From Myxococcota bacterium (GTDB taxonomy: Bacteria > Myxococcota_A > JAVEVO01): a stretch of 40,986 nucleotides of DNA. The position numbers and the translations under genes are program-made. The stretch covers positions 1 through 40,986 of the forward strand of contig JAVEVO010000055.1 of the NCBI GenBank assembly GCA_034005005.1. The letters run 5' to 3'. Shown here one piece after another: positions 18,332-38,671 of this stretch (position 1 is the first letter of the stretch; every line of letters begins with the position of its first letter). The notes beneath the pieces are model-generated. The model did not search any database and was not told the origin of the DNA. It saw only the letters and a program-made list of their open reading frames with translations.

Positions 18332-18478
18332 CGGCTGGTCCTGGTCGCCTGGGTCGTGGTCATGGCCGTCACGGGGAGGATGGCATGGCCGCGCGGGGGT
18401 GTCCAGGGCGGGAGATTGACCCGCTGCGGGGGGCGTGCCATCTTGGGGCGGTTCACCCTGCTCGGAGCGAGCGCCGCG

Positions 18479-20197
18479 ATGCGAGAGTGCCGTCAATGCG
18501 GCTGGAAGGGCGAGGGGACCCGCTGCCCCGTCGATGGGCTGCTCACCGTCGATCCCCTCGAGCTCACCGAGCCGGACGACCCCAACAGCTTGATCGGCCA
18601 GGTGATCGGCGACAAGTACCTGGTCGAGTCCCGTCTCGGCAAGGGGGGCATGGGGACCGTCTGGCGGGCCCGGCATCGCCTGCTGAATCACGGCGTTGCG
18701 CTGAAGGTCATCGACCCGGCGGTCGCGGATCCCCAGCAGGCCTCCCAGCGGTTCTATACCGAGGCGCTCTCCTGCAGCCGGCTCAGCCACCCCAACACGA
18801 TCCGCATCTTCGACTTCGGGATCCTGCCCCAGGGCTCGTTCTACATGGTCATGGAGCTGCTCCGGGGCCACGACCTGCAGGCCGAGCTGAACCATCACGG
18901 GGCGTTGTACCCGCTGCGCGCCGTACGTATCGCCCGGCAGGTCTGCAAGTCCCTCAGCGAGGCCCACGCGGCGGGGGTGATCCACCGTGACCTCAAGCCG
19001 TCCAACGTCTTCCTCGCCGAGGTCCACGGCGAGCCCGATCTCGTCAAGGTGATCGACTTCGGCATCGCCAAGCTCTTCGCAGTGGAGTCGAGCGCCGCGC
19101 TCACGGGCACCGGGACCTACCTCGGCACTCCGCGCTACATGTCGCCGGAGCAGGCCAGCGCGAGCCGGGTCGACCTGCGCACCGATCTCTACTCCCTCGG
19201 GGTCGTGCTCTACGAGATGCTCGTCGGCACCATCCCCTTCGAGGCCTCCGCCCCCACCGCCCTGCTCCTGGCGCACACGATCCAGGCCCCGCGGCCGCTC
19301 CCCGAGACCCTCGCCGGCGTCGTGCCCCCGCCGGCCATGCGTGAGCTGGTCGCCGGGCTGCTGGCCAAGGACCCCACCGAGCGGCCGGCCAGCGCGGACG
19401 AGGTCGCCCTGCGCCTCGCCACGGTCGAGGCCGATCTGCTCGCGAGCGGCTGCACGGACGCGCTCGCCCGGGACGAGAGCCGGCAGCGCGCCGCCCTGGC
19501 CGAGGCGCGGGACGAGACGTCCCTCCCGGCCCCGCCCCCCGTCCGGCTACCGCCGGCGGGCCCCGCCGGGGGCGCTCCCGGTGACCTGCCGGCCGGCGTC
19601 CTCGTCGACCGCGGGCCGCCGGCCGGTCCGGCGGACTCCCGCGAGCTCCGGCCCCGGTCCGGGAGGGGCTGGCTGGTCGTCGGGGCCTTGCTCTTCGTCG
19701 TCGCGTTCGGGGCGGGCGGTCTCGGCCTGGGGCTGTTGCTCCGTGGCCAGCAGGCGCCGACGGCTCCAGGCGCGGTCCCCGCACCCGGGCCGGCGGCCAG
19801 GGCCGCCTCCGGCGAGGCGGCGCCGACCCCGTCCCCGGACGGGACGCCGCCCCCGGCGGTGGCCGCGGCGGCCCTGGGGACCGGCCCCGCGCGGGTCCAG
19901 GTCACCTCCGTGCCGGCGGGGGCGCGGATCGAAGAGGACGGCCGGCTCCTCGGAGTCACCCCCCTCGAGCTGCCCCCCGGAGCGGAGCACCGGTCCCTCG
20001 TCCTGAGCTTGCCGGGGTACCACGCCGCGACGGTGATCGTCGACGGTCGGGGAGGGGGGCCGCGTGCCGTCGTGCTGGAGCCGCTGACCCCTCCGTCCGG
20101 GCCGCACCCCGGGCGCTCCGGGCGCCCCGCCGGCCGGCCTGGTGCCCAGGCCCGGGACCAGCCGGCGGGTGAGATCCAGGTCGACTACGGGTTGTGA
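18479..20197 (+). CDS. serine/threonine protein kinase with N-terminal zinc ribbon and C-terminal PEGA domain
   Basis: Zinc ribbon CRQCGWKGEGTRCP. Kinase motifs GKGGMGTV, HRDLKPSNV, DFGIAK and GTPRYMSPE are present. A TM helix WLVVGALLFVVAFGAGGLGLGLLL follows. The terminal PEGA-like block is RVQVTSVPAGARIEEDGRLLGVTPLEL. Confidence 0.85.
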   Translation: MRECRQCGWKGEGTRCPVDGLLTVDPLELTEPDDPNSLIGQVIGDKYLVESRLGKGGMGTVWRARHRLLNHGVALKVIDPAVADPQQASQRFYTEALSCSRLSHPNTIRIFDFGILPQGSFYMVMELLRGHDLQAELNHHGALYPLRAVRIARQVCKSLSEAHAAGVIHRDLKPSNVFLAEVHGEPDLVKVIDFGIAKLFAVESSAALTGTGTYLGTPRYMSPEQASASRVDLRTDLYSLGVVLYEMLVGTIPFEASAPTALLLAHTIQAPRPLPETLAGVVPPPAMRELVAGLLAKDPTERPASADEVALRLATVEADLLASGCTDALARDESRQRAALAEARDETSLPAPPPVRLPPAGPAGGAPGDLPAGVLVDRGPPAGPADSRELRPRSGRGWLVVGALLFVVAFGAGGLGLGLLLRGQQAPTAPGAVPAPGPAARAASGEAAPTPSPDGTPPPAVAAAALGTGPARVQVTSVPAGARIEEDGRLLGVTPLELPPGAEHRSLVLSLPGYHAATVIVDGRGGGPRAVVLEPLTPPSGPHPGRSGRPAGRPGAQARDQPAGEIQVDYGL

Positions 20198-20199
20198 GG

Positions 20200-21330
20200 A
20201 TGTCTGCAGAGCACGGCGTGCGCGGTACATTGCAACGAGACCTCAGCGGGAGCCAGGGACCGCGGGCGCGGCGCCGGCGTCCGGGCTGGCTGCCGTCCGG
20301 GGTGCTCCTCCTGCTGCTCGGTGCTGCCGGGGCGAGCGCGGCTGCGCCGCGGCCGGCCAACACCGAACTCCAGGACCTGGTCGACGCGGCCGACGAGCTG
20401 TTCCGCGCGGGAGACCATGCCGCGGCCCTCGCCGGCTACCAGGAGGCCCTGCGTCGCTCCCCGCTCCCCGCCCTGCACTACCCCATCGGGCGGTGCCTGC
20501 AGGAGCTCGGGCGCCTCCCCGAGGCGCTGGCGTCCTTCGAGACCTTTCTCGCCGGCCCCGCGCCCGCGGCCGCCCGGATCAAGGTCGAGCACATCGTCGC
20601 GCAGCTCCGCCGGCAGCTCGCGCAGGGGCGCCTGGTGCTCCAGGTGGAGCCCTTCGGCGCCGCGATCCTCGTCGATGGCGAGCTGGTGGGCCGGGCGCCG
20701 TTGCCCCCGTGGCCGGTCACCCCCGGGGAGCACGAGCTCGTGGTCCGGCAGGCGGGGTACCAGGAGGACCGGCGTCGGGTGAGCGTGCCGGGGGGTGGGG
20801 AGCTGGTGGTCGTGGTCCTGCTCGCCCCCCTCGCCGAGGTCGTCCCGTCGGGCGCCGCGCCGCCCGCCCTGGCCGCCGAGCCACCTGCGGCCGGCGCCCC
20901 GGGCGGGCCGGTCGCGGCGGGGGGGAGCACCGCGGCCTCCCCCGGCGCGCCGCCCGCGGCCGGCCTCGGCTCCCCGGCGCCTCCCGGCGCGGCCAGCCGC
21001 CTCCCCGCCCTGCTCGTCCTCGGTGCGGGCCTGGCCTGTGGCGCGGTGGGCGGGACGCTCCTCGTCCTCGGCGACCTGGACCACGGGGCGATCGAGGAGG
21101 CCCCGGGGTACGGGAGCGGGGAGGTGGTCCAGATGACCCGGAGCCGGGCCCTCGCGCTGGAGGCCAGCGGCGACGGCAAGAAGCGGTGGGGGACGATCCT
21201 CGCGGGGGCCGGGGGCGCGGCGGTGGCTGCGGCCGGGCTGCTCGTCCTGCTCCGGCCCACGACGGCGGGGCCCGTGGCCGTGACCCTGCAGCCCGGCCCC
21301 GGCGGGTTCGCCCTCCAGGGGAGGTTCTGA
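20200..21330 (+). CDS. secreted TPR + PEGA domain protein
   Basis: Signal peptide WLPSGVLLLLLGAAGASAAAP. A TPR-like region (ADELFRAGDHAAALAGYQEALRRSP...) is followed by a PEGA-like block RLVLQVEPFGAAILVDGELVGRAPLP...GEHELVVRQAGYQE and a C-terminal TM. An alternative GTG start at 20194 overlaps the kinase stop (GTGA). Confidence 0.7.
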   Translation: MSAEHGVRGTLQRDLSGSQGPRARRRRPGWLPSGVLLLLLGAAGASAAAPRPANTELQDLVDAADELFRAGDHAAALAGYQEALRRSPLPALHYPIGRCLQELGRLPEALASFETFLAGPAPAAARIKVEHIVAQLRRQLAQGRLVLQVEPFGAAILVDGELVGRAPLPPWPVTPGEHELVVRQAGYQEDRRRVSVPGGGELVVVVLLAPLAEVVPSGAAPPALAAEPPAAGAPGGPVAAGGSTAASPGAPPAAGLGSPAPPGAASRLPALLVLGAGLACGAVGGTLLVLGDLDHGAIEEAPGYGSGEVVQMTRSRALALEASGDGKKRWGTILAGAGGAAVAAAGLLVLLRPTTAGPVAVTLQPGPGGFALQGRF

Positions 21331-21332
21331 CC

Positions 21333-22565
21333 GTGGCTCGGCCGCGTGCGACCTACCTCCTGGCCCTCCTCGTCCTGCTGAGCGGGCCCGGTCTGCCGGG
21401 GTGCCGGCAGCCCGATGTCGCCGGCCAGCTCTGGCACTGCCGCGTGGACGCCGACTGTGGCGGTGGCTGGAGCTGCCGCCAGGGTGTCTGCCGCCCCCCG
21501 GGCTGGACCCCGCCCCCGGATGGCGGCTCCCGGCTGGACGGGGGCGAGGAGGTCGATCAGGGCCCCGCGGACGACGCGCAGCCGGGCGACGGGGGGGCTG
21601 CCGATGCGCAGCGCGCGGACCTCGGCCCCGACGACCTCGGCCCCGACGACCTCGGCCCCGACGACTTCGGCCCCGATGACCTCGGCCCCGACGACCTCGG
21701 CCCCGACGACCTCGGCCCCGACGACCTCGGCCCCGACGCCGGTGGGTGCGGTCCCTGCGGCGCCGGGCAGGAGTGCGACCGGCTCGGGGTCTGCCGACCG
21801 CGGCAGCTCCTCGTGGCGGAGGGGAGCTTCCTCCTCGGCAGCCCGGCGGGAGAGGTCGGCCGGGAGGCGGACGAGAGCGCTCACCTCGTGCAGGTCTCGT
21901 CCTTCCTCATCGACCGGCGGGAGGTCACCAACGCCGACTACCTGCGCTGCCGCCAGGAATCCCCGAGCTGCCCGGCCCCCCTGCAGTGCGACGCGGGGCT
22001 GCCGGACTGGAACCCCAGCGGCGAGTCCTTCCCGCCGGCCCTCGGGGACCACCCCCTGCGCTGCGCGACCTGGGCCATGGCCGACGCCTATTGCCGCTGG
22101 GCCGGCAAGCGGCTGTGCACCGAGGCCGAGTGGGAGCGGGCGTGCGCCGGTGCGGCGCACCGACCCTTCCCCTGGGGCGACTGGCCCCAGGCCCCCGAGC
22201 GCTTCCTCAACTGCACCGAGGGGACCTGCCATGACGGGCACGCCGGGACCGCCGCCGTGGGCAGCTTCCCGGAGGGGGCCACGCCGGAGGGTGGCCTCGT
22301 CGACCTCGCCGGCAACGTCGGCGAGTGGGTCCAGGATTTCTACCAGGCGGCCTACCAGGAGGACGACCCCGTCGACCCCCGTGGGCCTTGCCACGGCGTC
22401 GGACCCTGCGAAGGGTTCCTCTCCCGGGTGCTGCGGGGTGGATCCTATATCTCTTCTAGGTCTAAAGTACGCTGTTCCGAGCGTGGAATGGGACTAGAGT
22501 CCCCGGTGGAGGGCCTGGCTCCGGCCACGGCAGGCATCCGCTGCTGCCAGGACGCTCCGCCGTGA
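21333..22565 (+). CDS. lipoprotein with formylglycine-generating-enzyme (FGE-sulfatase/SUMF1) domain and DLGPD x8 tandem repeat linker
   Basis: Lipobox LLSGPGLPGC. The FGE-domain motifs are EFLLGSP...AHLVQVSSFLIDRREVTNADY, RLCTEAEWERAC and VGEWVQD...RVLRGGSY. The GTG start sits 2 nt after the preceding stop. Confidence 0.75.
   Translation: MARPRATYLLALLVLLSGPGLPGCRQPDVAGQLWHCRVDADCGGGWSCRQGVCRPPGWTPPPDGGSRLDGGEEVDQGPADDAQPGDGGAADAQRADLGPDDLGPDDLGPDDFGPDDLGPDDLGPDDLGPDDLGPDAGGCGPCGAGQECDRLGVCRPRQLLVAEGSFLLGSPAGEVGREADESAHLVQVSSFLIDRREVTNADYLRCRQESPSCPAPLQCDAGLPDWNPSGESFPPALGDHPLRCATWAMADAYCRWAGKRLCTEAEWERACAGAAHRPFPWGDWPQAPERFLNCTEGTCHDGHAGTAAVGSFPEGATPEGGLVDLAGNVGEWVQDFYQAAYQEDDPVDPRGPCHGVGPCEGFLSRVLRGGSYISSRSKVRCSERGMGLESPVEGLAPATAGIRCCQDAPP
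21621..21740 (+). repeat. 8 x 15-bp tandem repeat (ctcggccccgacgac) encoding (DLGPD)8
   Basis: Direct reading finds 8 consecutive 15-bp units with only 3 substitutions, in frame inside the FGE lipoprotein linker. Confidence 0.9.
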
Positions 22566-22653
22566 GTCAGGGGCTCTGGTACCTTGGTGCGGCGATCCTG
22601 ACCGATCGGCAGGCCGCGGGCGGCTGACTGGACCGCGTCCGACGGGGACGGGC

Positions 22654-22683
22654 TTGACGCGCCCGTCGGCGCAGCGCTACTGT
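22654..22683 (+). promoter_or_regulatory. candidate sigma-70-like promoter TTGACG-N18-TACTGT embedded in a 7-bp inverted repeat (gacgggc / gcccgtc)
   Basis: The element lies about 35 bp upstream of the kinase start at 22718. This is a pattern-only call. Confidence 0.25.
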
Positions 22684-22717
22684 CCGGGCATCGGCGACGC
22701 GCGAGGTCCTGTTCATC

Positions 22718-23986
22718 ATGCACATCTGCCCCAACTGTGGCCGACGCGGGGAGCGGGGGATCTGCCCCCACGACGGGTTCCCCATGCTGGACGAGGCGCT
22801 GCAAGGGCGGCGTCCCGTCGAGGCCGACCTGCTCGGGCGGGTGTTCCAGGGCCGCTACCAGGTCACGGCGCTCCTCGGCAAGGGGGGCATGGGCTGGGTC
22901 TTTCGGGCCAGGCACCTCAAGCTCGGCCAGGAGGTGGCCCTCAAGGTGCTCCGGCGGGACGTCGGCGACGACCTGCGGCTGGTCAAGCGGTTCTTCCTCG
23001 AGGCCCGGACCTGCGCCCAGTTGCGGCACCCCCACACGATCCGGGTCCACGACTTCGGTGAGAGCGAGGACGGCTTCCTCTACCTGGCGATGGAGTTCCT
23101 CGCCGGCCACCCCCTCTCCCGGCACATCGCCCGGGGGCCCCTCGACCCCCGCCGGGCGGCGCGTCTGGCCATGCAGGTGTGCCAGTCCCTCGACGAGGCC
23201 CACGACGCCGGGCTCGTCCACCGCGACCTGAAGCCCGACAACATCTTCCTGTGCAAGATCCACAAGCTGGACGATTTCGTGAAGGTCCTCGACTTCGGCA
23301 TCGCCAAGCTCGCCGAGGGGGCGGGGGGGGAGCGGCTGACGGCCACCGGCACGGTCGTCGGCACGCCGTCCTACCTCTCGCCGGAGCAGGCTCAGGGGCT
23401 GCCCCTGGACCGTCGCTCCGACCTCTTCGCGCTCGGGGTCACCTTGCACGAGATGCTCACGGGGCAGCCGCCCTTCGAGGGGCCCTCCGCGGTGGCGACC
23501 CTGGGCAAGATCGTCCTGGAGCCCCCGCCGCCTCTGCCCGCGTCCGTCGCCGGTCAGCCGGTCCCGCCCGCCCTCCGGGAGCTGATCGAGCAGCTCTTGG
23601 CCAAGCAGCCGGCCGCGCGGCCCGCCTCGGCCGAGGAGGCCGCCCATCGCCTGGAGGCGTTCGCGGGGGATCCGACCTCTGGCGTCGGCCGGCTCGTCCC
23701 GCGTCCGCACGGCGCGCCGGCCGGTTCGCCGGCTGCTCCTGCTCCCGGCCCGGTGGACGACCAGGCGCCGACGGTCATCGGGCTGGAGCCGCCGCCGCTC
23801 CCGGTGGCGACCCTGCCCACGGGCCGGGCCGCGGCGCGGCCCGGCCCGCCGTTGCTGGTGGTGGTCCTCATCGTGCTGCTTGTGGGGATCGGGCTGGGAG
23901 GGCTCACCGCGGGGCTGGTCTTCCTCGGCTCCTCGGGGGAGGCCGGCGACGCGACCCCGGCCCCCGCAGCCACGGCAGCGCCCTAG
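22718..23986 (+). CDS. serine/threonine protein kinase with N-terminal zinc ribbon and C-terminal TM anchor
   Basis: Zinc ribbon CPNCGRRGERGICPHDG. Kinase motifs GKGGMGWV, ALKVL, HRDLKPDNI, DFGIAK and GTPSYLSPE are present. The C-terminal TM helix is LLVVVLIVLLVGIGLGGLTAGLVFL. Confidence 0.85.
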   Translation: MHICPNCGRRGERGICPHDGFPMLDEALQGRRPVEADLLGRVFQGRYQVTALLGKGGMGWVFRARHLKLGQEVALKVLRRDVGDDLRLVKRFFLEARTCAQLRHPHTIRVHDFGESEDGFLYLAMEFLAGHPLSRHIARGPLDPRRAARLAMQVCQSLDEAHDAGLVHRDLKPDNIFLCKIHKLDDFVKVLDFGIAKLAEGAGGERLTATGTVVGTPSYLSPEQAQGLPLDRRSDLFALGVTLHEMLTGQPPFEGPSAVATLGKIVLEPPPPLPASVAGQPVPPALRELIEQLLAKQPAARPASAEEAAHRLEAFAGDPTSGVGRLVPRPHGAPAGSPAAPAPGPVDDQAPTVIGLEPPPLPVATLPTGRAAARPGPPLLVVVLIVLLVGIGLGGLTAGLVFLGSSGEAGDATPAPAATAAP

Positions 23987-24026
23987 CCCCCGTGCGGCTC
24001 GCGACGACCGGTCGGAGGTGAGGTGG

Positions 24027-25718
24027 ATGTCGGCTCGTCCGGCGTGTCCGAGGTTCCTCGGGATGGTCCTGCTCCTGGTCGGCTGCCATGGGGAGTCGAA
24101 CCCCGGTGGCCCGGCGGACCAGGGGGGAGCGAGGCCACCGGATCAGGAGGTGGTCCGCGATGCGGGCGATGACCTCGAGCCGGGGGACCACGACCTGGGC
24201 CCGGCCCGGGACCAGGGGAGCGCGACCGACGTCCACGGGGAGCGGCTGGACCTGCGTCCGGGGGCGGACGGGCCAGACGGTGCGCCGGACCTGCAGCCGG
24301 AGGGAGACGGACCCGACGCGTCGGACCTCCCGCCCCTGGACCAGGGCGGCGGGACCGGCGCCCTGGAAGGCCTCGCCCTGAGGATCGGCGCGGCCGATCT
24401 CACAGGGACCCTGGTCCAGGTGGCGGGGCTCGATTTCTCCTGCCTGACCGACGCCAGCGGTGCCTTCCGGCTCGTGGACGTCCCCATCGGCTCCTACGCG
24501 GTGGTCGCCTCCTACCCGGGCTTCGCCACGGCCCGGGCCTCGGACGTCCAGGTCGTCGCCGGGCAGACGGCCCAGGTCCCGCACCTGCGGCTGGCACCCT
24601 TGCCCGGAGCGGTCCTGGGCACCGCGACCCGGGGGGGCGCCCCGGCGGGCGGCCACGGCGGGATCCTCCTCGCGATCGCCGGGACGGACTGCCAGACCAC
24701 CACCGCGGACTCGGGGGCCTTCACCCTCGGCTCGGCGGTCTGTGTGCCGCCCGGCCGGCACGTGCTGAGCGCGACCGCCGCGGGGTACTTCCCGGCCGCC
24801 AGCGATCCCTTCGACCTCGGGCCCGGCGAGACGCGGGAGCTGCCGCCCCTGCTCCTCGTCCCCGACCTGGACGGCGATGGCCGCGCGCCCGCTCCCTGGG
24901 GCTCCGACTGCGACGACCGGAACTCGGCGGTCTGGCTGCCCGCGTGCGGCGACCGGCAGTGCGGCGACGACGGCTGCGGCGGAAGCTGCGGGAGCTGCCC
25001 CGACTACCACCGCTGCGTCGATGGGCACTGCCAGTGCTTCCCGGACTGCCGGGGCTCCACGAGCTGCGCGCTGGGCGCCGATGGCTGCGGGGGCAGTTGC
25101 CAGGACTGCGTCGCCGGTCACGTCTGTGTCGGCGCCGTCTGCGTCTGTCCGGCAGGACAGCGCGAGTGCCAGGGGAGCTGCCAGCTACCCAACGCGTGCG
25201 GCGGCTGCAGCGCGCTGCCCGTCGCGGGGAGCGCCGCGGGCGATTGCCTGGTCTACCAGGGCTGCGCGAGCCCCGAGGCCCGCCACGTCGTCTCCGCTTG
25301 TACGCCCGGGCAGTGCTGCGTCGGCGGGGTCTGCCGGAGCTGGCTGCGCCGGGAGGACAACCACGTCATCCTCTACGAGGACGTCAACTACGGTGGCGGC
25401 CAGTGGGTCTCGGGCAGCACCTGGAACGACAATGATTTTTCGAACGACTCCTTCGACGACGGCACCGGCCTCAACGACGAGGCCTCCTCCTTGAAAATCC
25501 GGATCAGCGAGTGCCTCACCTTCTGGCTGGCCGAGGATTCGAGTCAGCAAGGGGACAAGATCATCATCACCGGCAACAATGGCTGGATCGAGATCCCCGA
25601 TCTGCACCGGGTCCCCTCCACCGATCGCATCGCGCGCGATGGCTTCCCCGACAATTTCAACGACGTGGCCTCCTCCCTGTCCTGGATCCAGACCGGCAGC
25701 GACTGCTTCTGCCCCTGA
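24027..25718 (+). CDS. Cys-rich lipoprotein with carboxypeptidase-regulatory-like beta-sandwich domains and C-terminal beta/gamma-crystallin-like domain
   Basis: GGAGGTGAGGTGG ribosome-binding site then ATG, with lipobox LLLVGCHG. Two CarboxypepD_reg-like blocks are present (GTLVQVAGLDFSCLTDASGAFRLVDVPIGSYAVVASYPGF; GGILLAIAGTDCQTTTADSGAFTLGS...HVLSATAAGYFP). The next stretch holds 30 or more Cys in CGG/CxxC spacing. The crystallin Greek-key-like region is VILYEDVNYGGGQWVS...KIIITGNNGWIEIPDL. Confidence 0.7.
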   Translation: MSARPACPRFLGMVLLLVGCHGESNPGGPADQGGARPPDQEVVRDAGDDLEPGDHDLGPARDQGSATDVHGERLDLRPGADGPDGAPDLQPEGDGPDASDLPPLDQGGGTGALEGLALRIGAADLTGTLVQVAGLDFSCLTDASGAFRLVDVPIGSYAVVASYPGFATARASDVQVVAGQTAQVPHLRLAPLPGAVLGTATRGGAPAGGHGGILLAIAGTDCQTTTADSGAFTLGSAVCVPPGRHVLSATAAGYFPAASDPFDLGPGETRELPPLLLVPDLDGDGRAPAPWGSDCDDRNSAVWLPACGDRQCGDDGCGGSCGSCPDYHRCVDGHCQCFPDCRGSTSCALGADGCGGSCQDCVAGHVCVGAVCVCPAGQRECQGSCQLPNACGGCSALPVAGSAAGDCLVYQGCASPEARHVVSACTPGQCCVGGVCRSWLRREDNHVILYEDVNYGGGQWVSGSTWNDNDFSNDSFDDGTGLNDEASSLKIRISECLTFWLAEDSSQQGDKIIITGNNGWIEIPDLHRVPSTDRIARDGFPDNFNDVASSLSWIQTGSDCFCP

Positions 25719-26525
25719 TCAGGCCGCGCAGGACCGGTGTGAGGTGGGTGGCTTGACCCCGGCCAGCCGGAAGCCCTCCAGCGCGCGCTCGGTGACGTCG
25801 GTCTCCAGGGCCTTCTCGTAGACCACGTCGAGGACGTAGACCTTGGCCCGCAGCCGGACCGCGAGGTAGCCCTCGTCGATCACCTCGGAGACGCTCACGT
25901 TCCAGGGCTTCTCGAGGTAGGCGTAGGTGGAGGAGACCACTGCCTCGCCGAGGATCCGCTTGGGGATGGCGAGGTCCTGGTCGACGCCGACGAACAGGTC
26001 GATCTGCACCAGCATGTCCAGGGCGCCGTAGTTGCCGCTCGAGACGAGGTCGGTGAGGAACTTGTTGTTGGGGATGGTGACGACGTTGTCGTCGAGAGTG
26101 ACGAGCTGCACCGAGCGCAGCCCCAGGGAGGTGATCTCGCCGTAGACCCCGCCGAACGCGACCCGGTCGCCGACCTGGAAGGGCTTGTCGATGAGGATGG
26201 TGATGCCGGCGATGACCGAGGCCGCGAGGTCCTTCAGCGCGAAGCCGAGGGTGACCGCCACCGTGCCCCCGAGCGCGAGGACCATCTCCTTGGAGAGGTT
26301 GACCGACAGCAGGAAGGCTGCGCTGATCCCGGCGACGAAGAGCAAGAAGCGGGTGAAGGAGCTGACCTGGTTGATCTGCAGGCGGCGGTCGGTGAAGCGG
26401 CGGCCGAGCCCGTCGAAGAAGCGGGACAGCAGCCGGCTGATCGCCCAGGTTGCGAAGAGCACCACGGCCGCGGTGAGCAGGCTGCCCACCCGGAAAAACT
26501 CGATGATCTTCGTCGCGTCTTCCAC
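25719..26525 (-). CDS. small-conductance mechanosensitive channel (MscS family) core
   Basis: Three TM helices are followed by the MscS signature GGTVAVTLGFALKDLAASVIAGITILIDKPFQVGDRVAFGGVYGEITSLGLRSVQLVTLDDNVVTIPNNKF. The GTG start follows a GGAGG ribosome-binding site. It sits 15 nt downstream of the preceding gene. Confidence 0.85.
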   Translation of the reverse strand: MEDATKIIEFFRVGSLLTAAVVLFATWAISRLLSRFFDGLGRRFTDRRLQINQVSSFTRFLLFVAGISAAFLLSVNLSKEMVLALGGTVAVTLGFALKDLAASVIAGITILIDKPFQVGDRVAFGGVYGEITSLGLRSVQLVTLDDNVVTIPNNKFLTDLVSSGNYGALDMLVQIDLFVGVDQDLAIPKRILGEAVVSSTYAYLEKPWNVSVSEVIDEGYLAVRLRAKVYVLDVVYEKALETDVTERALEGFRLAGVKPPTSHRSCAA

Positions 26526-26540
26526 GGTGGACCTCCGCCG

Positions 26541-29500
26541 TCAGGACCAGATCAGGTGTTTGCGACGTAAAAAGCGCATCACGGGTTGCGTGTAGCCCGG
26601 GCTGAGGCCATAGCTCCCGGGCTCCGTCTCCTCGACGATCCCGAGCCGCTGCAGGTTGCGCAGCAAGGCGACGAGCCCCTCCTCGGGGTGACGCAGCACC
26701 CGGCTCGCCTCCGCCGCGGTCAGGGAGCGGTGGAGCAGCAAGGCGGTCAGGAGGAAGCGGTTGGGAGCGGCCAGCTCCTCGAGGACGGTCACGTCGGGAG
26801 TCCGGAAGAGGTGCACCCGGACCTCCCCCTCGTCCGCGGGGACCAGGGAGCGCAGCCAGTAGTGCATGGCGGTACGGGGGTTGCCGTCCGCGTAGTCCCA
26901 GAGCAGGCGGCGGAACCGCTCACCTGTGCGCACTACCTCGTCGTGGATCGCCCGGCCGTCGAGGGAGTCGAGGAGCAAGTCCTCGTAAGAACAGGAGAAT
27001 CCCGAGATGGCCATGCGCCGCGCGATCAGCTCGCCGATCTCGGCCTCGCTCCACGTGGGGAGTGCGAAGGCCTGATCGAAGGGGTCGAGGCCTTGGACCT
27101 GGCTGTGCAGCCGGTCCCAGGCGAGCTGGCCGAAGGCGCAGACCCAGGCGTGACGGGGCGCGGTGGCCGCGATCAGCGTGGCCAGCGCCTCGAAGCCGGC
27201 CCCCCCGCCGACGACCCGCAGGTAGAGCTGCTCGCAGCCATCGAGCAAGATGAGGCGTGGCGACTCGTGGGCCAGCCAGCCGGGCAGGTCCTCCGTGGGG
27301 GGGAGGCCGAGCCGCTCCCGCAGCAGCGCGAGCAGGTCCGCGGGCGAGGAGAGGTGGCCGGGGATCCGCACCAGCAGGGGCCGCTGCTCGGGGTGACGAC
27401 GCTGCAGCGCGACGAGGTAGGAGCTCTTGCCGACGCCCTGGGCGCCGACCAGGGCCACGACGCAGGAGCGGCCCTGCTGCTGCCAGGCCTCGAGCATCGC
27501 CTGCAGCCGCTCGTGGTGCGGCCAGCGGGGGACCACGGCGGCCTCGTCCGGCAGACCGTCGGCGAACGCGGCGCGCAAGGTGGCGGGCAACTGCTGGACG
27601 TCGGTCTGACCGTGACCGCGCGTCTCGGCCTGGCGCTCGAGCTGTCGGCGGAAGAGGAAGGCCAGCGCCCGGCGCGTCTGCTCGAAGCCGAGCAGCAGGT
27701 TCTTGGCCGACTCGGTGAGGCCACGCGCCGCCACCCCCCCGAACGCGAGCAGGGCGACGAAGAAGCCCAGCCGCTGGCCCCGGGTGCGGGCGACCAGGCC
27801 GGCGAGCCGGCTCTGCGGGTAGATCCGCAAGAAGGCATCGGCGATGTCGTCCCGCCACCGGTAGATCAGCAGCAGCACCACGGGCACCAGGCCCAGGAGG
27901 AAGAGGTCGCTCACCAGCTCGTAGAGGTATCCCGGCCCCTCCGTCTCCGCGATCAGCACCCGCGCGAGCAAGGCCACCAGCAGGAAGCGACCGAGGACCC
28001 GCAGGGAGGCGAGGATCCGCTCGCTGACCACCGGGGACACCTCGATCCGGCGCAGCAACCCCCGGCTGGTGAGCAGGTGATGGGCCGCGGCCAGGGCCAG
28101 CCGGTACCAGGCATAGCCGAGGACCAGGGTCCGCAGCAGCGCGAGCTCCGCGACGCCGTCCGGTTCGAGCAGGGCGAACAGGGCCAGGCAGAACAGCAGG
28201 ATCCCGATCTCCCGGGCGATGGCCACCCCGAAGGCGAGCCAGCCGTCGATCAGCAGGCCGGCGCTGCGGCCCTTGACCCGGCTGACCAGGAAGTTCCGCC
28301 CGAGCTGCAGCCAGCTCTGGTAGCGAGGCCGCAGGAACAGCAGGAGGCCGACGAGCAGGGCCAGCTCGAGCAGCCGCCAGCTCAGCAGCCCGAGGTTGAC
28401 GGGGTCCCGCAAGGCCTGGCCCCAGTCCCGCAGCGAGTGCCAGCGCTGGTGGGGGAACCAGCGGGCGGCCAGCCGGAGATCGCCGAGCTCCCGGCCGAGC
28501 TGCTGCAGCCCCTCCCGGGTGGTGAGGCCGAGCAAGAGGTCGCGCTTGGCCGGGCTCAGCCGGGAGAGCAGCCGGGTCCGCTCCTGGTTGAGGGTGTCGA
28601 TGCTCGCGGCCAACCCCGCGGCCCGCCGGAAGCGCTGCTCCCGCTCTTCCCGGGCGAGCAGCAGGGTCTCCTCGGTCAAGGCGGAGAGCCCGTGCCGCAG
28701 GGCGGCCCGGGGGAGGGAGGGCTGCTGGTAGGGTGGCTGCGTGGTGTCGATCTGGGGGCTGAACGCGGGCTGGGCGCTGGGCGCGGCCAGCTCGTCCAGG
28801 GCCTGGTGCAGTTGCTGACGCAGGCGCTGGAGCCGCTCGACCAGGGTGTCGTACAGCCTGTCCGCTTCGGTCGGCGGCAGGTCGGGCGGCGCGAGGCGTC
28901 GCCGGAGCTCCTGCTCCTCGCTCAGGCGGGCCGCCTCGGCCTCGTTCTCCTGCTGGCGGCGCTGCGCGAGCTCGCCGCGCAGGGTCGCGATGGCTCCCCG
29001 GGCCGCCTCGACCCGCGCCAGCTCCAGGGAGAGCTCGCGGGCGAGGTGGTCCGCGGTCCGGCGGCTCTCGGCGAGGGCCTCGCGGCGCGCGGCCTCGGCC
29101 CGCTGGGCCGCGAGGTCGGCCTCCCGGCGGGCGAGGGCCGCGGCCTCCTGCTCCTGGCGGACCCGCTGACGCTCGGCCGCGACCTGGACGAGCTTCAGGC
29201 GCGTGGCCCGCGGCAGCTCGAAGAGCTGCACCCGCAGTTGCTCCCGCTCCCGCTGCAGCTCGAGCAAGGCAACCTGCGCCGCGCTGGGGGGCGGGGCGGC
29301 CGCGGGCTGCTCGGCCGGGACCCCGGCGTCCTCGGTCGGGGGAGGTGGCGAGGGCGGGATACCTCCGTCATGTCTTTCTGTCGTCGTTGAATCTTTGGGT
29401 CTATCGATAGGCTTTTCCTGGCGGAGACCTGGTTCTTTCGTCTCCTGGTCGGCCGGTCCAGCTCCGGCATCGGCCGCCCCGGTCCCGTGGTCGGTGACTG

Positions 29501-29912
29501 GCTGGCCAGCATCGGGACTCGCCTTCGGGGGAGCCGCTGCCGGGGGAGGCGCCAGCCAGCGCTGGCGCTGGGCGGTCAGCTCCTGCACCCGCCGGGCCGC
29601 CAGCCGCCGCGCGGCCTCCACTGCGGCCTCGTCCGCCAGGTCGATCTCGATCAGGGCGGTCAGCAGCGGCTCCTCGGGGAGCTCGCCGCGCAGCAGCCCG
29701 CCGAGCAGGGCGATCTCGCTGCGCAGGGTGTCGTGCGGGGCCGTGTCGGTCGCCCCGGGCGGGCTGGTCGGACCCGGCGGCGGTCCGGTCGGGTCCGGTG
29801 GGGGATCGGCCTGCGCGCCGCCGCCGAGCAGCAGCAGCAGGGCCAGGCAGCCTGGCCGGACCACCCTGGCGGCAGCCGACCCGGGAGGGGGACGGAGGAT
29901 CCAGCAGTACAT
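26541..29912 (-). CDS. large envelope protein with signal peptide, periplasmic coiled coil, polytopic TM domain and C-terminal P-loop NTPase (AAA-like) domain
   Basis: 1123 aa. Signal peptide RPGCLALLLLLGGGAQA. About 400 aa are E/R/A/L-rich heptad-like coiled coil. About 6-8 hydrophobic helices span roughly residues 470-760. Walker A is LVGAQGVGKSSYL and Walker B is RLILLDGCEQ. The gene contains a rare-codon island at about 29375..29440. Confidence 0.7.
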   Translation of the reverse strand: MYCWILRPPPGSAAARVVRPGCLALLLLLGGGAQADPPPDPTGPPPGPTSPPGATDTAPHDTLRSEIALLGGLLRGELPEEPLLTALIEIDLADEAAVEAARRLAARRVQELTAQRQRWLAPPPAAAPPKASPDAGQPVTDHGTGAADAGAGPADQETKEPGLRQEKPIDRPKDSTTTERHDGGIPPSPPPPTEDAGVPAEQPAAAPPPSAAQVALLELQREREQLRVQLFELPRATRLKLVQVAAERQRVRQEQEAAALARREADLAAQRAEAARREALAESRRTADHLARELSLELARVEAARGAIATLRGELAQRRQQENEAEAARLSEEQELRRRLAPPDLPPTEADRLYDTLVERLQRLRQQLHQALDELAAPSAQPAFSPQIDTTQPPYQQPSLPRAALRHGLSALTEETLLLAREEREQRFRRAAGLAASIDTLNQERTRLLSRLSPAKRDLLLGLTTREGLQQLGRELGDLRLAARWFPHQRWHSLRDWGQALRDPVNLGLLSWRLLELALLVGLLLFLRPRYQSWLQLGRNFLVSRVKGRSAGLLIDGWLAFGVAIAREIGILLFCLALFALLEPDGVAELALLRTLVLGYAWYRLALAAAHHLLTSRGLLRRIEVSPVVSERILASLRVLGRFLLVALLARVLIAETEGPGYLYELVSDLFLLGLVPVVLLLIYRWRDDIADAFLRIYPQSRLAGLVARTRGQRLGFFVALLAFGGVAARGLTESAKNLLLGFEQTRRALAFLFRRQLERQAETRGHGQTDVQQLPATLRAAFADGLPDEAAVVPRWPHHERLQAMLEAWQQQGRSCVVALVGAQGVGKSSYLVALQRRHPEQRPLLVRIPGHLSSPADLLALLRERLGLPPTEDLPGWLAHESPRLILLDGCEQLYLRVVGGGAGFEALATLIAATAPRHAWVCAFGQLAWDRLHSQVQGLDPFDQAFALPTWSEAEIGELIARRMAISGFSCSYEDLLLDSLDGRAIHDEVVRTGERFRRLLWDYADGNPRTAMHYWLRSLVPADEGEVRVHLFRTPDVTVLEELAAPNRFLLTALLLHRSLTAAEASRVLRHPEEGLVALLRNLQRLGIVEETEPGSYGLSPGYTQPVMRFLRRKHLIWS

Positions 29913-31261: not shown

Positions 31262-34199
<2,938 letters not shown>

Positions 34200-34376
34200 G
34201 CCCCTGCACCTCCGGCGCGCCCGCGAGGCTTGGGAGCGCCCCTGATTCCGTGTTCGAACCGCGGCAGCATCGCATGACCGGCCGGCGGAGTCGACGGGTT
34301 GGGGTGGCCGCGCGCCCCTCGCCGGTGTAGGGTGGCGTGGTCGGGCCGGTCGTGCGGTCGGCCCCGGGAGTGACTC
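34200..34376. promoter_or_regulatory. divergent intergenic region between MVP-operon start and HMG-CoA synthase gene (promoters expected, none confidently identified)
   Basis: A 177-bp non-coding gap separates two divergent starts that each have good ribosome-binding sites. It includes a relatively AT-rich core gattccgtgttcgaaccgcggcagcatcgcatgac. Confidence 0.3.
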
Positions 34377-35906
34377 GTGATCGAGCGGTTGGGCAGCTCC
34401 CCCTTTGGCATCAGCGGCTTCGCCCTCTGCGTGCCCCGTCCCCGGGTCCAGCTCGCGCAGTGGTGCCGCTGGACCGGCCGGAGCTGGCCCGCGCTGCAGG
34501 CCCGGGTGGGGGAGAGCTTCCGGCTCTGCGGTCCGGGCGAGTCGATCTACACCCTGGCGGCCGGGGCGGTCTTGCGCCTGATCCGCGCCCACGACGTCGA
34601 CCCGCGCCGGGTCGGGCTGCTCGCGCTCGGCACCGAGTCGAGCACCGACAACTCCGCGGGCGCGGTGATCCTCAAGGGGATGCTCGACGAGGCCCTCGTC
34701 CGCCTGGGGCGCCCGCCCCTCGCCCGGAGCTGCGAGGTCCCCGAGGTCAAGCACGCCTGCCTCGGTGGGGTGTACGCGCTCAAGGCCGCCCTGCGCTACG
34801 TCGCCGGCGATGGCCGCGGGCGACAGGCCATCGTCGTCGCCGCGGACCGGGCCCTGTACGCCCGGGGCAGCACCGGCGAGGAGACCCAGGGCGCGGGCGC
34901 GGTCGCCCTGCTCGTGGAGGAGGCCCCCCGCCTGCTCACCGTCGATCTCCTCCGGGCCGGCTCCGTCGCCCAGTACCGGGGGCCCGACTTCCGCAAGCCC
35001 CTGCTCGGCCCGCCGGCCGCCCCCGGGCTGCCGGCCCTCCCCCGGGAGAACCTCGAGCACCCCGTCTTCAACGGCCGCTACACCACGGTCTGCTACATCG
35101 ACGGGGTGCGCGGCGCGGTGGAGGAGCTGCTCGCCCGCTCGGGGCTGCCGGCCCGGAGGCTCTACCACGAGGTGGCCGCGGTCTTCATGCACCGGCCCTA
35201 CCATCGGCTGCCCTACAACGCGCTCGCGGCCCTGTACCTGTGGGCCCTGCGGGAGGCGCCTGAGCATCAGGAGGAGCTGAAGTCCCATTGCGATGCCGCC
35301 GAGGTGGACTTCGGTACCGTGATGGCCGAGCTCGCGAGTCACCCGGACCTCTACGCCGGCTTCCTCGCCGGGCAGCACGGCGGCGAGGTCTACGCTGCGG
35401 CCATGCAGGTCGCGCGCCACTTTCGCACCAGCGCGAAGTTCGCCGAGGTGGTGGCCGGGAAGATGCGGCTCGGCGTCCAGACGATGCGGGAGCTCGGCAA
35501 CCTCTACAGCGCGGCCCTGCCGGCCTGGATCGCGGCCGGGCTCGTCGAGGCCCGGGCGGAGGGGGTGGAGCTCGCGGGGGAGCTGCTGCTGGCCATCGGC
35601 TATGGCAGCGGCGACGCGGCCGAGGCCCTCCCCCTCCGGGTGGTGCCGGGCTGGCAGCAGGCCGCGGGCCGGATCGGCCTGACCGCGGCCCTCGCCGCCC
35701 CCCTCGACCTGGATGCGGAGCAGTACGCAGCCCTGCACGCGGGGGGCGCGCCCCCCGGGTTCGCGAGCGAGCCGGCGGGCGGGTTCGCGGTGGCGCGCGT
35801 CGGGACCGCGGCCGGGCCCACGGTCTGGGACCTCGGCGTCGACTACCACCGGTTCCAGGACGAGGGGCAGAGGCCCGACCCGACAGGCTCGGCGGTCGAG
35901 GGTTGA
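34377..35906 (+). CDS. hydroxymethylglutaryl-CoA synthase family protein
   Basis: Motifs GTESSTDNSAG, the active-site Cys region HACLGGVYALKAAL, and the C-terminal GYGSGDAAEA. The GTG start has GGGAG 7 nt upstream. Length is 509 aa. Confidence 0.8.
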   Translation: MIERLGSSPFGISGFALCVPRPRVQLAQWCRWTGRSWPALQARVGESFRLCGPGESIYTLAAGAVLRLIRAHDVDPRRVGLLALGTESSTDNSAGAVILKGMLDEALVRLGRPPLARSCEVPEVKHACLGGVYALKAALRYVAGDGRGRQAIVVAADRALYARGSTGEETQGAGAVALLVEEAPRLLTVDLLRAGSVAQYRGPDFRKPLLGPPAAPGLPALPRENLEHPVFNGRYTTVCYIDGVRGAVEELLARSGLPARRLYHEVAAVFMHRPYHRLPYNALAALYLWALREAPEHQEELKSHCDAAEVDFGTVMAELASHPDLYAGFLAGQHGGEVYAAAMQVARHFRTSAKFAEVVAGKMRLGVQTMRELGNLYSAALPAWIAAGLVEARAEGVELAGELLLAIGYGSGDAAEALPLRVVPGWQQAAGRIGLTAALAAPLDLDAEQYAALHAGGAPPGFASEPAGGFAVARVGTAAGPTVWDLGVDYHRFQDEGQRPDPTGSAVEG

Positions 35907-35972
35907 TCCCCACCCCCCGCCCTGGCTAAGCTCCAGGAGTCTGTGCCCCGTGCGTCCCCCCGGAGGTCGGCC

Positions 35973-37154
35973 ATGAGGTGTCGAGGTCTGCGTCCTGGCG
36001 GCCGCCCGGCCCGCTTCCGCTTCCCCGTCTGGCCGTTGCCGTTCGTCTTGCTCGGGCTCGGCCTCGCGGGCTGCAGCCTCACGGGGGTCGCCGGCCCCCT
36101 CGGGGCCCTGCTGCTCGTGCTCTCCCTGGCCCTCGGGCTCGGTGGCTGCCTCGCGGACTATGCCCGGCCCGCGGGGCGCACCGGCGAGGACGGGGGCGAG
36201 GGCGCGGACGCCGGGGGCGGGGGCGCGGACGCCGGGGGCGGGGGCTTCGACGGTGGGGGAGCCGCGGACGCCGGGACGCCCGACCTCGGCGACGTCCTCG
36301 CTGACCGTGACGGGGACGGCGTCCCGGATCGCGTCGACAACTGTCCCCTGGTCGCCAACCCGGCTCAGGAGGACGCGGACCGGGACGGCTGGGGCGATGC
36401 GTGCAGCCTACCCTGGGGCCTCTCTCCCTGCTGCGGCCCGGAGTGCGGGTACGACAGCGACGGCGACGGCCTCGCCGATCCCCTCGACCTCTGCCCCTGG
36501 ACCCCCGACCCCGCGTCCCGGGACGATGACGGCGACCGGCTCGGCGACGCCTGCGAGCTCACGGACGATCAGGACGGAGACGGCGTCCCCGATCGGCTGG
36601 ACAACTGCCCGCTGGTCGCCAACCCCGACCAGGCCAACACCGACGGCGAGGGCGACTTCACGGACCAGTACGGCGACGCCTGCGACCTGTGCCCCTACCC
36701 CGATATCGTCACTCCCTGCGGGGAGTTGTGCTGCTACGACGCGGACGGTGACGGGGTCGTCGGGGGCTACCTCCCCGCGGCCTCCGCCGGCTGTCCGACG
36801 AGGCCCGGGCTGCTGGACGACGTCTGTCCCTTCGTCCACGACCCCGAGCAGCGCGACGGGGACGGCGACCGGGTGGGCGATCGCTGTGACAACTGCCCGA
36901 CGGTGCCCAACCCCTTCCAGCTCGACCGGGACGGCGACGGGGTCGGGGACCTGTGCGCTCCTGCTGCGAAGCCCTTCGGCCCCTTCGGCTCCCGCACGCC
37001 GGAGCGGCAGCGGCTCCTCGAGCGGCTGCTGGCGGAGGGCGTCGTGCCGGCGCCGGTCTTCCTCGACGTCTACCCGGGTGAGCGCGCGCTGGCTCTGCAG
37101 GCCTTGCGCCGAGGCCTGCGCGTGCGCTTCGGCCTGGGCCGGGACCTCGCGTGA
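35973..37154 (+). CDS. lipoprotein with thrombospondin type-3 (TSP3) Ca-binding repeats, Cys-rich
   Basis: Lipobox [10 protein letters not shown]. The motif DxDxDGxxDxxDNCPxxxNPxQxDxD recurs 5 or more times ([34 protein letters not shown] ...). About 20 Cys are present. The GGAGG ribosome-binding site precedes the ATG at 35973. Confidence 0.8.
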
Positions 37155-38203
37155 CCCTCGACCCGGCGCTGGCCCGGGCCTCCCTCGCCCTCGAGGTCAC
37201 CACCCGCTGCGCGTGGCGCTGCGCCCATTGCTACAACCCCGGGCCCGAGGATGCGGCCGCGCCCCGGGAGGAGCTGCCCGCCGCCGAGCTGGTCGGCTTG
37301 ACCCGCGCGGCCTTGCAGGCGAGCGGCCGGCGCCGGGTGCAGGTCACGGGGGGCGAGCCCCTGCAGCGCGACGACCTGCTGTCGATCCTGCGCGGGCTGC
37401 GGCAGGGGGGCGCGCAGCTCTCCCTGGCGACGAGCGGTGACGGGCTCGACGCGCCGCTCGCCCGGGAGCTCGCTCGGCTCGGGGTCGGCCCGGTCCAGCT
37501 CAGCTTGCTCGCGGCGCGCCGGGAGCTGCACGACCGGCTCAAGGGTCCGGGCAGCTTCGACAGCACCCTCGGGGCCATCGGCCATCTGCGCCGGCAGGGC
37601 CTCCCCGTGTCCGTCGCCTTCGTGTGCCGGCAGGACAACGCCGGGGAGTTCGCCGGGGTCCTCGAGCTCTGTCATGCCCTCGGCGTGCCGGCCATCGCGT
37701 TCAACCGCCTCTGCCTGGCCGGCGGGCGGTCGGTGCACAGCGCGGCGCTGTCCGCCTCGCCCGCGCAGCTCCGCGGTTGCCTCGACCTCGCGGAGTGGGC
37801 GGTGGTCCGCCTCGGGCTGCGGGTCCAGGTCGCAATCACCCTGCCCCACTGCCTCGTCGACACGGCGCGCACGCCGCATCTGCGCTTCGGCGGCTGCTCC
37901 CTGGCCAGCGACGTGCCCGGCTACACCCTCGATCCGGCAGGCAACCTGCGCGCCTGCAGCATCTCCTCGACGGTCCTCGGCAACCTCGGCCAGGAGAGCT
38001 GGGACGCCATCGTCGCGCGTGCCCGGCGGGAGTACTTCCCGGCCCGGACCGCGCTCTCGGCAGCCTGTGGAGCCTGCGCCCAGCGGGCGCGCTGCCGGGG
38101 CGGCTGCCGGGAGACCGCCTGGAGCCTGCACCGGGCGCCCGGGGGGGACGATCCCCTCGCCAGCCCCGCGCACCGGCTCCCCCTCACCCCCGCGGGAGAC
38201 TGA
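37151..38203 (+). CDS. radical SAM / SPASM-domain maturase (anSME / peptide-modifying type)
   Basis: N-terminal CAWRCAHC (Cx3Cx2C). C-terminal SPASM cysteines end with [14 protein letters not shown] (Cx2Cx5Cx3C). Length is 350 aa. The GTG start overlaps the TGA of the TSP3 lipoprotein gene. Confidence 0.8.
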
Positions 38204-38219
38204 CCGGCGCGCCAGTCCC

Positions 38220-38248
38220 TTGACGCCGCCGTCGGGGATTCGTACACC
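38220..38248 (+). promoter_or_regulatory. candidate sigma-70-like promoter TTGACG-N17-TACACC upstream of panD
   Basis: Pattern-only call in the 90-bp gap before the 38294 start. Confidence 0.25.
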
Positions 38249-38293
38249 AGGCCGGGGCGGGGATCCTCGGCTGGCCGAGCGCGGAGCGGGACG

Positions 38294-38671
38294 ATGCAGC
38301 GTCGAATGCTCAAGAGCAAGATCCACCGGGCGACGGTGACCGCCGCCGACCTGAGCTACGAGGGGAGCGTCACCGTCGATCAGGTCCTGCTCCAGGCCGC
38401 GGACATCCTGCCGGGCGAGGCCGTCTGGATCTGGAACGTCACCAACGGGGCCCGGCTCGAGACCTACGCGCTGGAGGGGGAGCCCGGCTCCGGGGTGATC
38501 TGCATCAACGGCGCGGCCGCCCACCTCGTCCGGCCCGGCGATCTCGTCATCCTCGCCTCCTTCGTCCAGCTCGACGAGGCCGAGGTGCAGACCTTCCAGC
38601 CCCGGATCCTCTTCGTGGACGGGGCGAACCGGCTCGTCGCCGCACGCCCCGAGGTCCCCGGTCCCGCCTGA
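38294..38671 (+). CDS. panD: aspartate 1-decarboxylase
   Basis: 125 aa. [25 protein letters not shown] matches the PanD N-terminus, including the Gly-Ser self-cleavage site (YEGS). The NGAAAH...GD.VI pattern is conserved. Confidence 0.85.

Follow-up and report, generated by a model that had tools for sequence, protein, structure and literature searches.

On a 40,986-nucleotide stretch of DNA from a bacterium of the phylum Myxococcota (contig JAVEVO010000055.1 of assembly GCA_034005005.1; the whole of this stretch is referred to below as the window), two adjacent genes encode a 268-residue protein of the MscS family of mechanosensitive channels and a 1123-residue accessory protein. The latter carries at its C-terminal end an ATPase module which, by its modelled fold, belongs to the ORC/Cdc6 type of AAA+ proteins. 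The pair is without precedent in joining an MscS-family channel gene to a separate gene for an AAA+ accessory protein. The two genes are found together whichever of them is used as the starting point, and their products diverge in concert. A full-text literature search found no publication on an ATPase-linked MscS channel, in agreement with a first-pass annotation of this DNA, made from the sequence alone, which had held an ATPase-coupled channel of this kind to be uncharacterized. We consider the chances to be slightly better than even that the two gene products assemble into a single inner-membrane complex that couples an AAA+ nucleotide switch with an MscS-type channel; the physical contact between the two proteins, its stoichiometry, the control of gating by nucleotide, and the signal that is sensed are what we infer from the findings described below.

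The MscS family is the textbook case of gating by membrane tension alone, and its known elaborations, namely MscK, MscM, YbiO, YnaI, and the cyclic-nucleotide-binding fusions, extend the channel polypeptide itself. The pair described here calls into question that MscS channels are gated by tension alone. If the proposed complex exists, an MscS-type channel would have energy or the state of a nucleotide among its inputs, probably joined by a periplasmic signal, and an ORC/Cdc6-type module would be working at the membrane. Cultured carriers, namely Novosphingobium pentaromativorans US6-1, Novosphingobium sp. PP1Y, Caulobacter sp. NIBR2454, and Solimonas marina C16B3, allow direct testing.

The gene pair and its linkage

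Locus coordinates are given throughout as positions in the whole window, and both genes of the pair lie on its minus strand:

26541..29912, minus strand: gene of the accessory protein, 1123 aa, ATG start (open reading frame and translation; AlphaFold2 model; codon-position GC pattern)
26526..26540, minus strand: 15-nt spacer with a GGAGG Shine-Dalgarno sequence 6 bases ahead of the GTG of the MscS-family gene (sequence)
25719..26525, minus strand: MscS-family gene, 268 aa, GTG start (open reading frame and translation; Pfam PF00924; dedicated subfamily)

A word-indexed search recovered only 14 relatives of the accessory protein, and an exhaustive profile search that used its membrane and ATPase part returned 5,375 cluster representatives (at 50% identity) at E<=1e-3 and 2,100 at E<=1e-30; nearly all of the best 150 profile matches were covered over their full length, mostly 900–1250 aa. 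A genome scan, for which a conserved motif of the accessory protein (RRALAYLFRR) served as the pattern, gave 80 loci. These include Myxococcota (Polyangia, Nannocystaceae, Labilithrix, Chondromyces, and Byssovorax), Acidobacteriota (Thermoanaerobaculia and Sulfomarinibacteraceae), Thermodesulfobacteriota, Krumholzibacteriia, Methylomirabilota, and Gammaproteobacteria, among the last the isolate Solimonas marina C16B3, and the family is also present in Alphaproteobacteria (Novosphingobium). All six homologues that were inspected individually (24–39% identity) have a PF00924 gene 0–17 nt downstream, and a same-strand MscS gene directly follows the accessory gene at 86 of 88 loci, the contig ending no more than 702 nt further on at the two loci that have no such partner. 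At 83 of the 88 other loci the MscS start lies between –60 and +150 nt from the upstream stop codon, with gaps of mostly 0–20 nt.

The linkage holds equally well in the opposite direction. A reverse scan of metagenomes, with the MscS partner as the sole query, gave at least 538 relatives, the best 80 of which were examined (42–99% identity); the C-terminus of an accessory protein was found upstream of the MscS gene at all 62 loci having at least 300 nt of upstream sequence, and in the sample examined the MscS subfamily never occurs without its accessory partner. With the pair recurring at about 150 independent loci, its arrangement cannot be attributed to chance, and the expectation of the first-pass annotation that the two genes would be syntenic in other genomes is thereby confirmed. 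Clustering of all open reading frames from the loci yielded no third conserved gene. The two proteins also co-diverge: their pairwise identities correlate with r = 0.879, a value reached by none of 999 Mantel permutations, the median identity being 53% for the MscS protein versus 31% for the accessory protein.

Among the carriers, N. pentaromativorans US6-1 has the pair on its 757-kb replicon pLA3 (NZ_CP009292.1; 1616–5868 of the retrieved stretch) with the genes 2 nt apart, annotated as "AAA family ATPase" (WP_007014233.1, 1110 aa) and "mechanosensitive ion channel family protein" (WP_039857743.1). The MscS protein of this strain is 45% identical to that of the window (1e-82), and its large protein is 26% identical to the window copy over residues 349–686. 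Similar tblastn matches, known as matches only, were obtained in Novosphingobium sp. PP1Y and Caulobacter sp. NIBR2454. In the window itself, the accessory protein goes by the NCBI name "hypothetical protein".

Both open reading frames of the window read as real genes from the distribution of GC over their codon positions: in a window with a GC content of about 74%, the GC content of third codon positions (GC3) is 0.92 in the 1123-residue frame and 0.97 in the 268-residue frame, and the second position (GC2) is the lowest in both. As the first-pass annotation had described, these are two separate co-directional genes 15 nt apart, and, the spacer carrying a ribosome-binding site, their translation is probably coupled. 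The TGA of the accessory gene (26541–26543) is followed by five codons (26526–26540) and then by the MscS start, which places both genes in one reading frame. A fusion produced by stop-codon read-through was considered and rejected: the same frame is shared in about one-third of the loci, which equals the chance expectation and is therefore no evidence for read-through, and no fused sensor-channel polypeptide occurs among the 161 relatives inspected, the longest of which has 1255 aa. On its other side, the MscS gene ends directly against a convergent plus-strand gene (23880–25718, carboxypeptidase-regulatory-like domains), the two stop codons having no base between them (25718/25719), and no terminator-like site was predicted between these two genes.

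Architecture of the accessory protein

Sequence, hydropathy, and an AlphaFold2 model based on an alignment of 71 sequences (mean pLDDT 87.1, pTM 0.69) agree with the layout that had been read from the translation, that is, an exported N-terminus followed by long helices, a membrane domain of several helices, and, at the C-terminal end, a P-loop ATPase. The parts are as follows:

29808..29912, minus strand: signal-peptide-like N-terminus, residues 1–35, with a basic n-region, hydrophobic LALLLLL, and AQA before D36 (sequence)
29553..29738, minus strand: small conserved helical head, residues 59–120, motif LF-x-VDL-x-DE-x-AV (pLDDT 82–97; alignments)
29301..29537, minus strand: disordered Pro/Ala-rich linker, residues 126–204 (pLDDT <50; composition A 0.19, P 0.15)
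28410..29282, minus strand: long-helix (coiled-coil-type) domain, residues 211–501, predicted to be periplasmic (AlphaFold2 model; alignments)
27687..28403, minus strand: membrane domain, residues 504–742 (hydropathy; family Lys/Arg counts; predicted helices)
27618..27683, minus strand: basic juxtamembrane helix, residues 744–765, motif RRALAYLFRR (AlphaFold2 model; alignments)
26958..27515, minus strand: AAA+ base domain of the ORC/Cdc6 type, residues 800–985 (AlphaFold2 model; fold searches)
27420..27446, minus strand: Walker A motif GAQGVGKSS, residues 823–831 (sequence)
27231..27254, minus strand: Walker B motif LILLDGCE, residues 887–894 (sequence)
26544..26954, minus strand: AAA+ lid and C-terminal winged helix, residues 987–1123 (AlphaFold2 model; fold search)

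At the N-terminus, the model places a signal-peptide-like helix at residues 13–28, the family-averaged hydropathy has its maximum at residues 17–29, and a strongly hydrophobic segment falls within the first 60 residues in 79 of 135 full-length relatives; the signal peptide is presumably cleaved. The helical head that follows consists of two helices (59–74 and 95–120), and the Pro/Ala-rich linker behind it differs in length across the family alignment. Residues 211–501 form, in the model, five long and two short helices leading into the membrane (among them 211–231, 235–285, 289–340, 347–376, 400–449, and 466–501, with pLDDT >90), of which the near-invariant residues R445, G468, and E475 are close to the membrane. 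No Pfam match was found in this long-helix domain, and no Pfam or NCBIfam model covering the exported and membrane parts of the protein was matched.

The membrane domain comprises helices of membrane length at residues 504–527, 549–582, 588–620, 627–657, 662–685, and 716–742 of the model, and between 2 and 7 hydrophobic helices are present in 160 of the 161 relatives inspected. A fold search gave no specific match for residues 504–742, which leaves this domain without a recognizable solved relative. Lys/Arg counts together with the family hydropathy assign the loops 528–562, 607–639, and 684–716 and the segment after residue 733 to the cytoplasmic side and the loops 585–590 and 660–665 to the outside. 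This distribution indicates an N-out/C-in topology with five spanning helices, such that the ATPase is cytoplasmic and the long helices lie outside; the sixth hydrophobic helix, 716–742 (27687–27765), has Lys/Arg-rich flanks on both sides. In the basic helix just behind it, R747 and A751 are conserved in at least 90% of the family.

With regard to the C-terminal module, fold searches place it closest to Cdc6/Orc1, TnsC, and MuB, with DnaA and Hda also among the near folds. It displays features of the initiator clade, namely an AAA+ base with a Walker A motif of the form GxxGxGK[ST] and a helical lid that leads into a winged helix at the C-terminus (lid and winged helix modelled over residues 987–1117), the latter being similar to DNA-binding domains of the ArsR/MarR type. 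The module is thus, as far as the model reaches, an ORC/Cdc6-type (initiator-clade) AAA+ ATPase. Of the AAA_16/ORC-type affinity that the first-pass annotation had suggested checking, the ORC/Cdc6-type fold was recovered; in Pfam, AAA_16 gave a weak, sub-threshold match (2e-4) to residues 801–937 of the window copy, as did AAA_22 (8e-4), which is the most frequent Pfam match in the family (10 of 14 members, best 2e-10). No STAND-type C-terminal repeat or sensor domain is present after the nucleotide-binding module.

Both Walker motifs are present in the window copy in the form originally reported, and conservation was counted over 131 relatives. In the Walker A motif, G826 and G828 are found in 131 of 131 and K829 in 125; in the Walker B motif, D891 is found in 126. 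The residue after D891 is variable (D in 77, H in 13, G in 9, N in 8, and Q in 7), so that Glu is not among the five commonest residues of the family at this position, and in the window it is Gly. R966 (128 of 131), at the end of a Cdc6-like helix, and R1002 (123 of 131) are candidates for an arginine finger or sensor by pattern only, and the sensor-2-like R1013 of a GNPR motif is found in only 51. The 'DD' form of the Walker B motif occurs in DnaA, and slow ATP hydrolysis is therefore possible in the family, while Gly at the second acidic position suggests that the window copy may bind ATP yet hardly hydrolyze it. We regard the AAA+ module as one that would bind nucleotide and probably hydrolyze it slowly, acting as a switch, not a motor.

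The MscS-family protein

The product of the downstream gene matches PF00924 (MS_channel_2nd) with 66.5 bits against a gathering cutoff of 20.2 (E 2.3e-18), and over their channel parts it also matches the NCBIfam models of MscK, MscS, and MscM, MscK being the best. Its parts are:

26190..26507, minus strand: three membrane helices including the pore-lining helix, residues 7–112 (hydropathy segments 7–33, 60–78, and 90–112)
25755..26231, minus strand: MscS beta domain (residues 99–160) and alpha/beta domain (residues 161–257) (Pfam 99–160; alignment to solved chains up to 257)

The protein aligns to residues 32–266 of E. coli MscS and to other solved MscS chains. This nearly full alignment and the three hydrophobic segments identify it as a complete small MscS-type subunit; the first-pass annotation was thus right about the family, and its description of the product as a bare MscS core does not hold. 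The beta and alpha/beta domains, which constitute the cytoplasmic cage in known MscS channels, contain long stretches that are invariant in the subfamily, such as DRPFQVGDRV and TIPNNKFLT. In the transmembrane part, G87, A90, G94, A96, and D99 are invariant and F95 is nearly so. The subfamily alignment shows the pore helix to have a Gly/Ala packing pattern with hydrophobic V91 and F95, at what we take to be the gate positions of E. coli MscS; a pore helix with small residues and V91/F95 makes a conducting channel plausible. The partners at the other loci match the MscS protein of the window at a median E of 1e-93, as compared with 1e-11 for E. coli MscS, and by this measure of sequence similarity the 268-residue protein and its counterparts are a dedicated MscS subfamily.

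Proposed complex and mechanism

MscS is a heptamer, and by homology the 268-residue protein would form a heptameric pore with a cytoplasmic cage. The accessory subunit would reach into the periplasm with its exported head and with long helices totalling about 290 residues and cross the membrane as a bundle of five or six helices, and its cytoplasmic ORC/Cdc6-type module (base, lid, and winged helix) would be anchored at the membrane by the basic helix. As a slow nucleotide switch, this module could be driven by bound ATP to oligomerize beside the channel, its state being linked to gating either via the membrane domain or directly via the MscS cage, and the periplasmic part would deliver an input derived from the envelope. 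The coupling could run in either direction, with ATP or ADP setting the gating threshold, or with the state of the channel or membrane governing the assembly of the AAA+ modules. A distant relative from Delongbacteria (937 aa) bears on the site of contact: it has neither a signal peptide nor a hydrophobic helix (maximum 19-residue hydropathy 1.27), the only apparently soluble case among the 161 relatives, and an MscS-family gene is still found downstream of it (6001–9776 of its contig stretch), which hints that the core partnership is perhaps that of the AAA+/winged-helix part with the MscS cytoplasmic cage.

In a more far-reaching version, ORC/Cdc6-like AAA+ subunits, anchored in the membrane and arranged as a ring or arc, would set the gating of the MscS heptamer; ATP binding or hydrolysis, and with it a periplasmic signal received through the helical stalk, would then open or lock the 'mechanosensitive' channel. 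This would amount to a new channel class, with the pair as the first case of AAA+ regulation in the MscS superfamily and with an initiator-clade AAA+ module in a non-DNA role, and we put it forward tentatively, as a possibility with the odds against it. TnsC, which is among the closest folds, forms heptamers (PDB 7ufi, title), and by analogy a 7:7 assembly of the accessory protein and MscS is conceivable.

Several considerations weigh against a common complex. The contact between the two proteins is deduced from genomics only, and adjacent genes co-diverge to some extent irrespective of function. The commonest Walker B residues of the family do not include the catalytic Glu, and in the window the second acidic position is occupied by Gly. 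Helix 716–742, if it spanned the membrane, would place the ATPase on the wrong, periplasmic side; with the ATPase cytoplasmic, this helix cannot span and may be re-entrant or interfacial. Finally, the closest structural relatives of the module (ORC, Cdc6, DnaA, TnsC, and MuB) all bind DNA and the protein ends in a winged helix, so that a function linked to DNA is conceivable.

Alternative explanations

The last of these points gives rise to the alternative that survives best, although we still hold it to be unlikely, namely that the accessory protein is a membrane-tethered, nucleotide-dependent DNA-binding or regulatory protein serving in gene regulation or nucleoid anchoring, for which the MscS protein would be a tension-sensing input and not the output. 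Its attraction lies in the fold: Cdc6, Orc1, TnsC, MuB, DnaA, and Hda are all ATP-dependent DNA binders, the winged helix resembles ArsR/MarR-type domains, and the 'DD' form of Walker B is DnaA-like. The loci speak less in its favor, since no conserved target gene or DNA repeat lies beside the pair and the neighborhoods are wholly different from one locus to another. The winged helix, moreover, is not markedly basic, and in AAA+ and STAND proteins such a domain is often only part of the nucleotide module.

Co-transcription without contact, in which the two proteins act separately in one response (for example, to envelope or osmotic stress) and share only their regulation, we judge a little less probable still. 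Operon partners are not always complex partners, and the support for contact is genomic; against this stand a linkage of nearly 100% both ways across several phyla with gaps mostly of 0–20 nt, an MscS subfamily never found without its partner in the sample examined, and strong co-divergence. Such near-total linkage, with a partner that is never missing and diverges in step, is typical of obligate subunits, as the proposed complex would have them.

Many anti-phage systems combine an AAA+ or STAND sensor with a membrane effector, and the pair could by the same token be a defense or regulated-death module, with the AAA+ protein as the detector of an invader or of damage to the envelope and the MscS-type protein as the effector that depolarizes or drains the cell. 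We find this improbable. A weak Pfam match to nSTAND_NTPase5 in 2 of 14 members and the variation of the pair's neighborhood between loci are in keeping with the idea, but no PADLOC model matches either protein (E<=0.1), no relative turned up among 2.9 million viral contigs, and a tblastn search of plasmids gave three matches only, all on replicons predicted to be non-mobilizable, two of them of 757 kb and 1.16 Mb. The neighbors are genes of housekeeping types (such as Hyp, PurK, PriA, and Na+/H+ exchangers) and not defense genes, and the MscS partner is highly conserved (median identity 53%) and not fast-evolving. Neither a defense system nor a mobile element is thus supported.

The remaining alternative is the one from which the first-pass annotation had started, that of a split MscK system in which the accessory protein is the N-terminal two-thirds of an MscK/KefA channel that lost its MscS core through gene fission and was then fused to an ATPase. 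The order of parts is indeed shared (signal peptide, helical periplasmic domain, several membrane helices, and MscS module), the best NCBIfam match of the MscS partner is the MscK model, in its channel part only, and the pore helix of the partner has a Phe and an acidic residue at the positions of those in MscK. Pfam MscS_porin and MscS_TM, for which the E. coli MscK sequence served as the positive control, find that sequence (PF12795 at 4.6e-61 and PF12794 at 2.3e-100, respectively) and give no match in the accessory protein of the window (E<=1) or in 14 family members (E<=0.01). The comparison of the family profile with MscK by hhalign returned a probability of 0.46%; profiles of 14 and 71 family sequences searched against all PDB sequences matched only P-loop and winged-helix proteins and never MscK or MscM; and two fold searches failed to connect either the membrane part or the periplasmic part with the solved structures of MscK (7uw5) or MscM. 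The downstream protein, furthermore, owns three helices, as MscS does. What is shared with MscK is therefore a layout and not a detectable ancestry, and with an N-terminal part that shows no similarity to MscK the split-channel explanation, on the very ground that its proposer had named as decisive, becomes highly improbable.

Neighboring genes in the window

Immediately upstream of the pair on the same strand are two genes that the first-pass annotation had mentioned together with it:

29977 to ~31236, minus strand: CpaF/T2SSE-type secretion ATPase gene (domain matches), about 30 nt after the MVP-like gene listed next
31269–34199, minus strand: major-vault-protein (MVP)-like gene (domain matches: MVP_shoulder 1e-16, Vault_3, Vault_4)

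Their presence and orientation are as described; a link to the pair was rejected, as no homologue of either gene was found within 6 kb at the 88 other loci. Bacterial MVP homologues have been reported in a preprint (10.1101/872010), the text of which makes no mention of neighbors, operon, ATPase, secretion, or mechanosensitive channels.

Beyond the convergent gene lies a row of kinase and PEGA genes (13792–23986) that is typical of Myxococcota:

13792–16125, plus strand: eukaryotic-type Ser/Thr kinase gene (domain matches)
17453–20197, plus strand: eukaryotic-type Ser/Thr kinase gene with a PEGA domain (domain matches)
20194–21330, plus strand: TPR/PEGA protein gene, in a row with the kinase genes
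22718–23986, plus strand: eukaryotic-type Ser/Thr kinase gene (domain matches)

Further out, YwiC-like, B12-binding radical SAM, and tocopherol-cyclase-like genes occupy 5607–10457 on the minus strand, and HMG-CoA-synthase-like, thrombospondin-type-3-repeat, radical SAM, aspartate decarboxylase, and NlpC/P60 plus SH3 genes occupy 34374–40114 on the plus strand.

Comparison with known systems

The systems that most resemble the pair in outline are MscK (KefA) and MscM (YjeP) of E. coli, in which, likewise, a signal peptide and a helical domain in the periplasm are combined with additional membrane helices and an MscS module. These are single polypeptides without an ATPase, whereas here the functions are distributed over two polypeptides and the MscS partner has its own three helices; nor do MscK and MscM share sequence or fold similarity with the periplasmic or extra membrane parts of the pair. 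With E. coli MscS and other small MscS channels the 268-residue protein shares the three helices, the beta and alpha/beta domains, and PF00924. Canonical MscS is not known to have a dedicated partner, whereas the members of the present tight subfamily are, in the sample examined, always encoded behind an AAA+ protein.

On the side of the ATPase, the likeness to ORC1/Cdc6, TnsC, MuB, and DnaA/Hda is confined to a module that is here fixed at the membrane, with 750 residues of exported and membrane sequence ahead of it. The module departs from the ORC1/Cdc6 clade in its Walker B motif, where Glu is not among the commonest residues, and in the sensor-2-like R1013, present in 51 of 131 relatives, and no replication or transposition gene is linked to the pair at the loci examined. 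ExeA/GspA, which consists of an N-terminal ATPase, one membrane helix, and a peptidoglycan-binding domain, and whose partner in type II secretion is ExeB, may be likened to the accessory protein, since there too an AAA_22-type ATPase is connected across the inner membrane with a domain in the periplasm; its domain order is the reverse of that seen here, and its partner, unlike that of the accessory protein, is not a channel. The bCNG channels, in which a cyclic-nucleotide-binding domain is fused to the MscS channel itself, may be considered alike in combining MscS with a cytoplasmic nucleotide-binding regulator, whereas in the pair described here the regulator is an AAA+ module carried by a separate giant subunit.

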